Shown here: positions 146-37,026 of the stretch, piece by piece
Position numbering within the stretch: position 1 is the stretch's first letter
How the letters are laid out: the number at the start of each line of letters is the position of its first letter
Assembly: GCA_019659055.1 (NCBI GenBank)
Contig: JAIFWV010000001.1
Coordinates: forward strand, 72,123-117,223
Length of the DNA: 45,101 nt
Reading direction: 5' to 3'
Source: Candidatus Doudnabacteria bacterium
GTDB lineage: Bacteria; Patescibacteriota; Doudnabacteria; UBA920; O2-02-FULL-48-8
Program-made: the position numbers and the translations under genes
Notes under the pieces: generated by a model
Database searches by the model: none
Told to the model about the DNA's origin: nothing
The model's input: the letters and a program-made list of their open reading frames with translations, nothing else

Positions 146-211
146 ACCATCTCGAACGAAGTGAGAGATCCCGGTGTTAATACCGAGACTTCTCGCTCCG
201 CTCGAAGTGGT
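146..211. repeat. Two-arm palindromic element, copy 1 (same arms as those flanking the GIY-YIG gene, no gene inside)
   Basis: ACCATCTCGAACGAAGTGAGAGATCCCGGTGTTAATACCGAGACTTCTCGCTCCGCTCGAAGTGGT; near-identical to 4343-4407; arms match 36130-36157 and 36445-36480. Confidence 0.92.
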
Positions 212-4342: not shown

Positions 4343-4407
4343 CCATCTCGAACGAAGTGAGAGATCTCGGTGTTAATACCGAGACTTCTCGTTTCTCTCG
4401 AAGTGGT
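4343..4407. repeat. Two-arm palindromic element, copy 2
   Basis: CCATCTCGAACGAAGTGAGAGATCTCGGTGTTAATACCGAGACTTCTCGTTTCTCTCGAAGTGGT, between the atpF stop and the atpH start. Confidence 0.92.
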
Positions 4408-13824: not shown

Positions 13825-13866
13825 GAGTTATTAAGCCATTTTACACTTGCTTATTTTAGCAAACTC

Positions 13867-13895
13867 TTGACAAAACCGCAAAAAAGGAGTATAAT
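13867..13895 (+). promoter_or_regulatory. Consensus sigma70 promoter
   Basis: TTGACA-17 bp-TATAAT. Confidence 0.85.
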
Positions 13896-13940
13896 TACTT
13901 GTTGGAACATGCCGTTCCGACCAAAGGCCAAGGAGGCCAT

Positions 13941-32095: not shown

Positions 32096-32148
32096 ATTGT
32101 GATAAAACGGGAATTAGATCCCGTTTTTGTTTGCGTATTCAGTATATA

Positions 32149-32177
32149 ATTGTACTCCTTTTTTGGCATTTTGTCAA
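32149..32177 (-). promoter_or_regulatory. sigma70 promoter for the ABC pair
   Basis: Minus strand TTGACA-17 bp-TACAAT. Confidence 0.75.
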
Positions 32178-32185
32178 CATTTAGC

Positions 32186-34539: not shown

Positions 34540-36120
34540 TTAGGTTTCGACTTCGCCGCCCATAATTTTGAGGGCGGATTCCATGAGATTATTATCGAGA
34601 TTGTCTTCCACGGGTTCGCCCGGCGGAGGCATCTCGTTTTCTGTTTGCGGTGATAAGGGAACAGGTTCTCCCTTCCAATCCTTCTCCACGACTGGTTTGA
34701 TCATAAGCTTCATACCGGTAACTTCTTCGATAACCTGATCGACTACGATCTTGTTTTTGCGCTGTTCAACAGCGTCCTTATGGAACTTATACGGAAACGT
34801 GATCACGAGCTCCCGGCCTTGCAGGGCCACGGCTTTGGCCAATTTCAGGCTTGGAATAAGCGAATGATTGTACTCTTTGAGTTTATCTAAGATTTTCGGC
34901 CAGGCTTCAGCAATTTTCTGCAAACCTTCAGGATTGTCATGAGAGTTTCCACTTCGATCCGACGATTGTCGGGGAGAAGTCTCGGTGTTAGTACCAAGAT
35001 CTCTCACTTCGTTCGAGATGGTACCAATAGCAACATTATCTTTAATATTTATCGCCTCAATGGCTGCCAGTTCCATAGGCAAGCTTTGGATCACGCTCCA
35101 CTTGATTTCACTACCGGCGCGCTGGAATAATTCAATAATCCGGACCAGCTTCTCAAGCGGTACCCGAGACACCAACTCCAAAAGCTTGCTTTGCATTTCC
35201 TGGGAAAACCCAAAGTCGGCACGCGCCCCGACTTTGATAATGAGAATCTTGCGCAAATACTCCAAGAAGTCTTTCTGGAATTGGATGAGGTCTTTCCCTG
35301 AATACATAAGTTTGGAAATAAAATCCACGGCTTGCTTGTTTTCGCCGGCCAGGATGAGAGACAAAAAATCATACGAGGTCTGCAGACTGGTTAGTCCGAG
35401 CACATCTTCAGCCAAAGCCACGGTGAGTTTGCCATTGGCAAAATTTAGGACTTGGTCGAGGAGAGACAATCCATCTCGGAAACTGCCGTCCGCGGCCTGC
35501 GCGATGACGATCAGAGCTTCATCTTCGGCCTCGACTTGATTATCGGCGCAGACAAACTTAAGCCTCTGGACCAGATTTTCCATAGAGGCTTTCTTGAAGT
35601 CAAACCTTTGCGTGCGCGAAACTATCGTAGCCGGGACTTTATGAATTTCGGTGGTCGCCAGAATAAAAATTGCATGCGCGGGGGGTTCTTCCAAAGTCTT
35701 AAGCAATGCATTGAAGGCCCCTTTGGAGAGCATGTGGACTTCGTCAATGATTATGACTTTGTACTTGGCTCGGGTGGGCGCAAATTGCAGATGGTCTATG
35801 AGCTCGCGGATGTTATCGACTCCGGTATGCGAGGCGGCGTCAATTTCGAGGATGTCCAAAGACGTTCCGCCCAAAAAATCCTTACAGATATCGCAGTTAT
35901 TACAAGGTTCACCCTCAGCCACCTGGAGACAATTCACAGCGCGCGCAAAAATCCTGGCGATAGTGGTTTTACCCACTCCGCGCGGACCCGTAAACAAATA
36001 CGCGTGGCCGGCGCGATTGTGGGCCACAGCGTTTCTGAGGGTAGTTTTGACGTGATCCTGGCTCACGACATCCGAGAAACTCACGGGACGATATTTGCGA
36101 TATAAGACGAGATTAGACAT
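34540..36120 (-). CDS. dnaX: DNA polymerase III subunit gamma/tau
   Basis: LYRKYRP, GPRGVGKTT, zinc Cys cluster, EIDAAS, DEVHML, FNALLKTLEEPP. Confidence 0.98.
   Translation of the reverse strand: MSNLVLYRKYRPVSFSDVVSQDHVKTTLRNAVAHNRAGHAYLFTGPRGVGKTTIARIFARAVNCLQVAEGEPCNNCDICKDFLGGTSLDILEIDAASHTGVDNIRELIDHLQFAPTRAKYKVIIIDEVHMLSKGAFNALLKTLEEPPAHAIFILATTEIHKVPATIVSRTQRFDFKKASMENLVQRLKFVCADNQVEAEDEALIVIAQAADGSFRDGLSLLDQVLNFANGKLTVALAEDVLGLTSLQTSYDFLSLILAGENKQAVDFISKLMYSGKDLIQFQKDFLEYLRKILIIKVGARADFGFSQEMQSKLLELVSRVPLEKLVRIIELFQRAGSEIKWSVIQSLPMELAAIEAINIKDNVAIGTISNEVRDLGTNTETSPRQSSDRSGNSHDNPEGLQKIAEAWPKILDKLKEYNHSLIPSLKLAKAVALQGRELVITFPYKFHKDAVEQRKNKIVVDQVIEEVTGMKLMIKPVVEKDWKGEPVPLSPQTENEMPPPGEPVEDNLDNNLMESALKIMGGEVET
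34949..35022. repeat. Two-arm palindromic element, copy 3, in frame inside dnaX
   Basis: CCACTTCGATCCGACGATTGTCGGGGAGAAGTCTCGGTGTTAGTACCAAGATCTCTCACTTCGTTCGAGATGGT; reverse orientation relative to copies 1 and 2. Confidence 0.88.
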
Positions 36121-36129
36121 AAAGAGGTA

Positions 36130-36480
36130 ACCATTTCGAGTGAAGCGAGAAATCTCGCGATTAAATTATTGATTTATATAAGTCTTGCCATTTAGGGTTG
36201 ATTGAGCTTATCAAGGTTGTTTTTTTAAATCTGCCCCATTTCTTTATTTGTTTTTCTCTGGCCAAAAGAGCATCATAGTCTTCCCCAGATTCATAATAAA
36301 CCAATTTCTGGCATTTATATTTCTTCGTGAACCCTTCAGCGAAACCATTTCGGTGCTCCCAAACTCGCTTAACGAGATCCGAGGTAAAGCCTATGTAAAT
36401 CGCCCCACTTTCGCTGCTCATTATATAAACGTAAAACATATGTTTTAACACCGAGATCTCTCACTTTCGTTCGAGATGGT
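36130..36480 (-). mobile_element. Putative autonomous element: GIY-YIG gene between two inverted hairpin arms
   Basis: Arm ACCATTTCGAGTGAAGCGAGAAATCTCG (36130-36157) and arm TTAACACCGAGATCTCTCACTTTCGTTCGAGATGGT (36445-36480); mobility is inferred. Confidence 0.65.
36161..36439 (-). CDS. Small stand-alone GIY-YIG nuclease (UPF0213-like)
   Basis: FYVYIM..IYIGFTSDLVKRVWEH..GFTKKY..LVYYE..AREKQIKKW..NPKWQDL; likely start ATG 36439. Confidence 0.92.
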   Translation of the reverse strand: MFYVYIMSSESGAIYIGFTSDLVKRVWEHRNGFAEGFTKKYKCQKLVYYESGEDYDALLAREKQIKKWGRFKKTTLISSINPKWQDLYKSII

Positions 36481-36555: not shown

Positions 36556-37026
36556 TCATCGATCCTTAAATACAAACCTCCGGTAACCGAAGAAATTCCA
36601 AATAAGACCAAGCCCGATACCCAGCGCATTTGCCAAATTTAGCCACAGCTTCGCCGAAAGGCCAGCCACAGGATTGATATAGGTCGTAACTAGAAATATC
36701 ACGGTAGCGTTGATTGCGGCACCGACAATACTCACCATGAGGAATCGGGTAAATTCCACGCCCCGATCGTTTGTGCTCGGATCCCGAAACGACCAGTGCT
36801 TGTTCATATAATAGCTATTGGTGGTAGCCACCGCAAAGGCCGCGGCCGAAATATAAATTACCTGCCCTCCCTTTTCTATTCCTGTCAGCCAGGTCAGCAC
36901 GTTGAGAATAATAAAGTTGATTACTGTATTCATGAGTCCGACGACGGCAAAACGCAAAAACTGGCCAGCAAGCTGGCCGTAGTTTTTATTGGTTTCGGAT
37001 GGCGGAAGATTATTCTCTGGGATCAT
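36556..37026 (-). CDS. GtrA family membrane protein
   Basis: QFLRFAVVG..NT, NSYYMNKHWSF, WNFFGYRRFVF. Confidence 0.92.
   Translation of the reverse strand: MIPENNLPPSETNKNYGQLAGQFLRFAVVGLMNTVINFIILNVLTWLTGIEKGGQVIYISAAAFAVATTNSYYMNKHWSFRDPSTNDRGVEFTRFLMVSIVGAAINATVIFLVTTYINPVAGLSAKLWLNLANALGIGLGLIWNFFGYRRFVFKDR

Follow-up and report, generated by a model that had tools for sequence, protein, structure and literature searches.

The window, that is, the whole stretch of 45,101 nucleotides that was analysed (G000:C12:72123-117223), belongs to G000, a 900-kb genome in 39 contigs that is 97% complete. At 36130-36480 its minus strand reads an arm A, five bases, an ORF that starts with ATG and an arm B that abuts the stop codon. 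The original prediction of a GIY-YIG gene bracketed by inverted hairpin arms was borne out here by exact matches of the arms, by the ORF and by a match to Pfam PF01541. The features of the locus, together with the other copies of the arms in the window, are the following:

36130-36160, plus strand: arm B, an SRM-type hairpin directly after the stop codon (exact match, regular expression, nhmmer)
36161-36439, minus strand: ssn-like gene for a 92-aa single-domain GIY-YIG nuclease (ORF list, Pfam, alignment)
36445-36480, minus strand: arm A, an SRM-type hairpin with the junction GGTGTTAA, directly upstream of the nuclease gene (exact match, regular expression, nhmmer, stem covariation)
34540-36120, minus strand: dnaX, the downstream neighbour of the element and also host of an in-frame doublet (Pfam)
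36556-37026, minus strand: gene of a GtrA-like membrane protein, the upstream neighbour of the element (Pfam PF04138)
146-211, plus strand: gene-less A+B doublet between the atpD stop and the next atp gene (A unit 147-170 on plus, B unit 187-210 on minus)
4343-4407, plus strand: gene-less A+B doublet between atpF and atpH (A unit 4343-4366 on plus, B unit 4383-4406 on minus)
34946-35024, minus strand: A+B doublet within the dnaX reading frame (A unit 34998-35021 on minus, B unit 34946-34986 on plus)

The hairpin unit of arm A spans 36455-36479, with the motif in sense on the gene strand; its minus-strand text, ACCATCTCG...GAGATCTCGGTGTTAA, has one exact match, at 36451-36480 (minus strand), with 0 expected in shuffles. 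That of arm B (36131-36154) carries the motif in sense on the plus strand and is thus inverted relative to arm A; arm B was likewise matched exactly once (36130-36157, minus strand), with 0 expected in shuffles. The element sits in the 5′ leader of dnaX, just downstream of a promoter-like TAAAAT box. Elsewhere in the window, two near-identical promoter-like stretches (13859-13897 and 32147-32185) lie 18 kb apart in opposite orientation, both reading TTGACA...17 nt...TATAAT with a shared AAAAAGGAG spacer.

The ORF encodes 92 aa when counted from the ATG and 96 aa from an upstream GTG. The PF01541 match (E 4.6e-14) covers residues 5-75 of the 96-aa form, and no second domain was found with Pfam. 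In an alignment of 15 relatives of the nuclease, Y5, Y15, R25, H29, E62 and N81 are invariant; these Tyr, Tyr, Arg, His, Glu and Asn residues presumably have the catalytic roles known from work on I-TevI and UvrC. An NCBIfam search gave a sub-threshold match only, with no family assigned, and a sequence search of the PDB returned UPF0213 proteins only (E 3e-5 and 4e-4) and no Ssn structure. G000 as a whole contains 11 small GIY-YIG genes plus one of UvrC size. Four of the small ones are Ssn-like and come with three hairpin dialects: two have the window type, a paralog on C27 has the CCATTGCGAGGAG... type and one on C26 has the canonical type.

Each arm is one copy of the unit CCA-YYTC-GA-NN-loop-NN-GA-GARR-TC. 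Searching the 900 kb of G000 for CCAYYTCGA-N6-12-GAGARRTC yielded 43 units, against 0 for the control, the same pattern read backwards, and an nhmmer profile search added a few degenerate units. Counted over the genome by pattern and profile, the copies comprise 22 gene-less doublets, 2 gene-bearing units and 2 single arms. All 22 gene-less doublets are arranged tail to tail, and every doublet has the motif in sense on both strands. The three joined, gene-less copies that had been foreseen were all recovered, at 146-211, 4343-4407 and about 34946-35024, and both atp copies do retain the arm-to-arm junction CGGTGTTAATACCG. The second gene-bearing unit and a further gene with a doublet in its reading frame lie on other contigs:

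G000:C37:19525-19879: gene-bearing unit, besides the window copy
G000:C26:35540-36613, minus strand: dihydrouridine synthase gene (dus) with an in-frame Ssn-type doublet

Copies are housed mostly in short spacers between co-directional genes, and two doublets, those of dnaX and dus, lie in frame inside genes. The dnaX doublet is placed in the linker that joins domain III to the C-terminal domain, with an enlarged loop in its B unit (34946-34986, plus strand), and the dus doublet breaks the Pfam Dus match into two stretches. In all six related genomes compared, the dnaX linker holds in-frame hairpin doublets or other palindromic repeats, the dialect varying from genome to genome. No T-run follows the stems in the flanks of the 43 units. 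These flanks show a weak preference only, with G never found at -1 and T/G-rich positions at -3 to -5. As had been noted for the window, no consistent target-site duplication was seen, either in the 12 nt outside all 43 units or at the site pairs compared between G000 and the same-genus genome G002; a duplication of fixed length, which together with inverted repeats characterises MITEs and DDE transposition, is thus lacking at these sites.

The stem of the unit has 9 pairs with a conserved tandem G.A/A.G and a loop of 3-5 nt, pairs 6 and 7 being the invariant G.A and A.G. Of 27 distinct units, 26 have GC, AT or CG at pair 8, and 26 have CG, TG or TA at pair 9; both pairs were left unconstrained by the search pattern, by which pairs 2 and 3 were partly constrained (Y with R). 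At the four variable pairs, 105 of 108 combinations are canonical in register, compared with 23-46 of 108 when the partner is slid. The oligonucleotide d(GCGAAGC) forms a very stable DNA mini-hairpin, and the conserved G.A/A.G with a GAA-type loop resembles such hairpins, a likeness that speaks against an RNA role of the repeats.

Within the convergent pairs in which both arms match the search pattern (18), one arm is of the 'TC' type (A) and the other of the 'TT/CT' type (B), so that 18/18 are heterotypic. Pairing inside the arms gives 137 Watson-Crick pairs, 6 GT pairs and 1 mismatch of 144, against 42 Watson-Crick pairs, 44 GT pairs and 58 mismatches (of 144) when the same bases are paired between arms. 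The selected structure is the small hairpin of each arm, and the differences between A and B are compensated within the arm. In nearest-neighbour DNA folding, a whole doublet is most stable as a single long A-B hairpin (-12 to -15 kcal/mol, z -2 to -3.4); the z-scores of single arms are weak (-1.3 and -2.0). Despite this folding preference, the long A-B palindrome was rejected as the selected structure because pairing covaries within arms and not between them; the small intra-arm hairpins fit the covariation instead.

Two kinds of spacer separate the arms of the doublets. One, YCGGTRTTAAYACCGA, is what results when the left junction of the window copy, TCGGTGTTAA, is joined to its right junction, TAATCGCGA; the other, CCTCTTTAAAAGC, corresponds in the same way to the two junctions of the C37 copy. 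The left and right junctions have 3-4 nt in common, TTAA/TAA for the window copy and AAG for C37. As the spacers are the summed junctions, gene-bearing and gene-less forms differ by the ORF alone, with the 3-4 shared bases at the break. Deletion and insertion of the ORF would both fit. The gene-less doublets do look like derivatives of gene-bearing units, as had been proposed: all pairs are A+B and their spacers match the filled junctions.

Comparison with relatives revealed empty sites. At the gtrA-dnaX junction, one of the places singled out for comparison in the original prediction, the element is absent in G001, G002 and G009 (the interval is 80 nt in G002 against 445 nt in G000), and the spacers of G003 and G011 hold unrelated repeats. 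G002 was compared over its whole length, and for 16 sites of G000 the two flanks could be placed close together in it. Of these sites, 6 are cleanly empty, 4 carry other palindromic sequences and 6 are unclear, with no window motif at any of the 16. Among the atp junctions, the atpF/atpH site is empty in G002 (8 nt vs 79 nt), and the spacer orthologous to the doublet at 146-211 contains a different, AT-rich palindrome. The dus site measures 18 nt in G002 and 81 nt in G000, a difference of 63 nt, or 21 codons. The gene-bearing copy on C37 is orthologous to a copy in G001, and the filled copies of G019 and G009 occupy sites that are empty in G000. These comparisons indicate that gene-bearing units and doublets were gained at new chromosomal sites in this lineage, also in frame within dnaX and dus. 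Moreover, the dnaX linker of G001, G002 and G009 holds doublets of other dialects, which means that some sites were colonised repeatedly.

It is worth mentioning that G002 has an AT-rich palindromic repeat of its own, of the type TAATTGACCTAA...TTAGGTCAATTA (G002:C1:270975-271029 and G002:C4:60201-60272). This repeat fills two intergenic sites that hold Ssn-type doublets in G000, and spacers of this kind seem to receive insertions from different repeat families again and again.

Homologs of the window protein were detected in 34 of 40 relatives. The flanks of 36 homolog genes were compared, and nearly all show a head-stem-loop-stem-ATC hairpin immediately ahead of the ATG and an inverted one immediately behind the stop codon. 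Many of these flank sets are canonical, GTCATTCCCGC..GCGGGAATC; the window protein is 44-60% identical to relatives with canonical GTCATYCC..GGRATC flanking hairpins and nests among relatives of this kind. When the flank dialects, assigned by hand, were placed on the tree of the 36 Ssn-like proteins, 7 changes were counted, compared with a mean of 21.8 after shuffling (0/200 shuffles as low), and the six window-dialect genes form one group. The arms thus vary with the protein, as anticipated; shared descent of gene and flanks explains this agreement, which falls short of proving co-evolution. The close homologs carry cognate arms as well, namely 2/2 ssn genes of the window dialect (dialect i) in G000 and those of G019, G009, G001 and metagenomes. 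On metagenome contigs, window-type arms were seen at 5 of 80 homolog loci. These five, at 63-76% identity, all belong to the eight nearest homologs, of which the remaining three (60-64% identical) have other flanks.

Of 41 relatives, 12 contain the window motif at all, as do 12 of the 401 genomes in a sample taken across the phylum, and it is multi-copy only in G000 (43), G011 (20), G239 (16) and G001 (4). No ssn gene with window-type arms was found in G011 (20 hairpins, 98% complete) or G239 (16 hairpins, 99% complete), where the best homologs are 44-58% identical and have other dialects. This is a point against a strict dependence of the repeats on the nuclease.

The pairing of a small GIY-YIG nuclease with hairpins, put forward as a candidate system in the original prediction, has a precedent: the hairpin-ssn-hairpin layout and its analogy to insertion sequences and REP/RAYT are already in the Discussion of Chenal et al. 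2025 (Nat Commun 16:2388, PMC11893778). In the available text of that paper, SsnA is a 94-aa single-domain GIY-YIG protein (CDD cd10448). It binds the NTS hairpin repeat of Neisseria solely when this is in ssDNA, cuts upstream (5′) of the hairpin and leaves dsDNA and RNA untouched. An SRM hairpin lies near 71% of Ssn homologs and on both sides of 42% of them. The NTS-ssnA-NTS architecture is called identical to that of insertion sequences and likened to IS200/IS605 and REP/RAYT, a domestication is proposed for it, and the role given for Ssn in Neisseria is the modulation of transformation, not transposition (PMC11893778).

An ORF of Neisseria gonorrhoeae shares 46% identity with the window protein over 90 aa (E 7e-28). 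It came from a protein search of a plasmid collection, in which two 2.17-Mb records matched, and it is set among 7 matches to the NTS motif (≤2 mismatches) in 1070 bp; from this context we infer that it is the ortholog of N. meningitidis NMV_0044. In the 2.17-Mb record NZ_CP119142.1 (1881319-1882388), which is filed as a plasmid, this ssnA-like ORF lacks an in-frame ATG at its 5′ end. A wider scan of a genome collection with a 5-protein alignment as query recovered 592 relatives among 600 candidate stretches. From these, 80 were retained, a set drawn from many phyla whose identity to the query alignment is 60-78% and whose flanks show NTS-type hairpins; the strict published motif occurs on both sides of 11 of these loci, on one side of 33 and on neither side of 36.

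As in the Ssn/NTS-SRM systems covered by the available text of Chenal et al., the window locus combines a single-domain GIY-YIG protein of about 92-94 aa with head-stem-loop-stem-ATC repeats on both sides of its gene, repeats that are also dispersed in the genome. Several traits differ from those systems (PMC11893778). The window hairpin, CCAYYTCGA..GAGARRTC with its tandem G.A/A.G, falls outside the published degenerate SRM motif, which matches 0 of the 43 window-type units; in G000 this motif has 10 matches, against 5 in a reversed-genome control, and only the one upstream of the C26 paralog is clearly real. Nearly all window-type repeats are arranged as tail-to-tail A+B doublets, two of which are located in frame within genes, whereas 2% of NTS are intragenic in N. 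meningitidis, and the host here is a 0.9-Mb genome with four paralogs and three dialects. In addition, the repeat just after the gene has the gene's orientation in the Neisseria locus, whereas it is inverted in the window. Because the published motif misses the window units, it is the protein and the common architecture that place the locus in the Ssn family. On these grounds, we give a probability of roughly 0.78 to the reading that the locus is an Ssn-type system, in which the GIY-YIG gene would lie between cognate SRM-A and SRM-B and the doublets would be its derivatives or partners. By analogy, the idea that the GIY-YIG protein acts on the hairpins gains from this placement, in a family for which experiments have shown the binding and cutting of hairpins of like build in ssDNA (PMC11893778). 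To the known Ssn kind the locus adds a new hairpin dialect, heterotypic doublets, empty orthologous sites and in-frame copies.

Another reading takes the nuclease gene as a free-standing homing-endonuclease gene that invades existing doublets: it would cut them in the middle and be copied in as the break is repaired, and the doublets would then be targets and not derivatives. Its appeal lies in the position of the gene, exactly in the spacer of a doublet with 3-4 nt shared at both junctions, and in the ratio of few filled copies (2) to many empty ones (22). Against it, the relatives lack the whole unit at gtrA-dnaX, arms included, and the protein is a single domain of 92 aa with no extra DNA-binding domain; the separate DNA-binding domain and the intron or phage context of I-TevI-type enzymes contrast with the single-domain protein and the chromosomal, intergenic site found here. 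Characterised Ssn enzymes, moreover, are reported in the available text to spare dsDNA and to cut 5′ of the hairpin, outside the unit (PMC11893778). We therefore consider homing unlikely.

Even less probable, in our judgement, is that the doublets are REPIN-like repeats moved by a RAYT/IS200-like Y1 transposase, with the GIY-YIG gene as a passenger or frequent neighbour. G000 does have one such homolog:

G000:C28:5181-5633, minus strand: sole Y1_Tnp homolog of the genome, RAYT/IS200-like (PF01797; 29.7 bits, cut-off 23)

The inverted hairpin doublets of the window type also have what is reportedly the layout of REPINs, and the hairpins without a cognate ssn gene in G011 and G239 would suit this explanation. 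The arms, however, flank 2/2 dialect-i ssn genes in G000 and the closest homologs in G019, G009, G001 and metagenomes, and the flank dialect tracks the ssn tree. The Y1 gene encodes an H-L-H motif and has a small flanking hairpin of its own; it is not flanked by the repeats, as an HUH Y1 gene of a REP/RAYT system would be. An association of the arms with a RAYT elsewhere had been named as an observation that would tell against the nuclease, and searches up to 300 nt from the Y1 gene, as well as over the rest of C28, turned up no window-type hairpin. For the TnpB-type domain PF07282, G000 gave sub-threshold matches only.

That the hairpins act as RNA, be it as terminators, mRNA stabilisers or protein-binding stems, and merely share intergenic space with the gene is the least credible explanation: most copies do sit in short spacers between co-directional genes and the stem covariation is also compatible with an RNA helix, yet every doublet has the motif in sense on both strands, some copies are found within the atp operon or, in frame, within dnaX and dus, a T-run after the stems is absent, the loop is of the DNA mini-hairpin kind noted above, and characterised Ssn is reported as inactive on RNA in the available text of PMC11893778.

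Under the Ssn-type reading, the protein would most likely bind the small hairpin formed by each arm in ssDNA and cut a few bases 5′ of each sense hairpin, as its characterised relatives do. With arms in sense on opposite strands, such cuts would enclose the unit at its two outer ends, a geometry that fits an element whose ends are set by its nuclease and argues against a homing gene that cuts the spacer. The 22 A+B doublets would then be gene-less derivatives or partners of the two gene-bearing units. The sequences themselves show the anatomy of the locus, its place in the family, the covariation of the hairpins and the polymorphism of insertions, while the binding and cutting of ssDNA, the polarity of the cut and a role of the nuclease in the spread of the repeats are inferred.

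Perhaps the whole A-ssn-B unit moves autonomously and represents a class of mobile element that prokaryotes have not yet been shown to possess. A hydrolytic GIY-YIG ssDNA nuclease would set both borders through cuts 5′ of its oppositely oriented hairpins, and the replication or repair machinery of the host would finish the transfer, the A+B doublets being non-autonomous, REPIN-like derivatives able to land in frame in essential genes such as dnaX. We regard this as a tentative proposal with the odds somewhat against it. GIY-YIG nucleases hydrolyse DNA without a covalent intermediate; hence the nuclease alone could not rejoin the DNA and host functions would be needed. Full-text searches of the literature outside subscription journals found no paper on Ssn-driven mobility or on these repeats in this small-genome group.

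Several known systems are comparable in part. REP/REPIN-RAYT systems share with the present one the short hairpin repeats in inverted doublets, the patchy expansions of copy number among relatives and a single-copy enzyme gene flanked by repeats that are thought to be its substrates; they differ in their enzyme, an HUH tyrosine transposase, whereas a hydrolytic GIY-YIG nuclease is found here and the Y1 gene of the genome is without arms. Rickettsia palindromic elements, which are said to be inserted in frame into protein-coding genes, can be likened by description to the palindromic repeats that lie in frame in dnaX and dus. Rickettsia itself is among the genomes with >300 SRM elements in the available text of Chenal et al. 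(PMC11893778). As for IS200/IS605, the analogy drawn in that text (PMC11893778) holds in that a small gene is enclosed by two unlike subterminal hairpins, each recognised in the form of ssDNA, but the hairpins here are in sense on opposite strands and not on the same strand, and TnpA and TnpB are absent.

If the proposal of mobility is true, it would supply an enzyme for the long-orphan palindromic repeats of reduced genomes. Whether a repeat-ssn-repeat unit is mobile is a question left open by Chenal et al. 2025 in the text available (PMC11893778), and G000 offers an unusually clean natural experiment on it, with 2 filled units, 22 matching doublets, empty orthologous sites, in-frame copies and coexisting paralog dialects. 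Furthermore, the published search motif misses whole dialects, and the repeat partners of Ssn are thus probably under-counted.

Finally, six of the small GIY-YIG genes of G000 form a second clade. Four of them, all outside the window, were checked:

G000:C8:5440-5688: small GIY-YIG gene of the second clade
G000:C15:1798-1998: small GIY-YIG gene of the second clade
G000:C27:17261-17470: small GIY-YIG gene of the second clade
G000:C35:8517-8723: small GIY-YIG gene of the second clade

Each of the four is followed directly by a tRNA gene of the same orientation (Glu-ttc, Trp-cca, Pro-tgg and Pro-cgg), and about 17-25 nt of the 5′ part of the tRNA are duplicated just upstream of each ORF. It looks as if a GIY-YIG cassette had been inserted into the D-arm region of the tRNA gene, with an intact tRNA copy restored.
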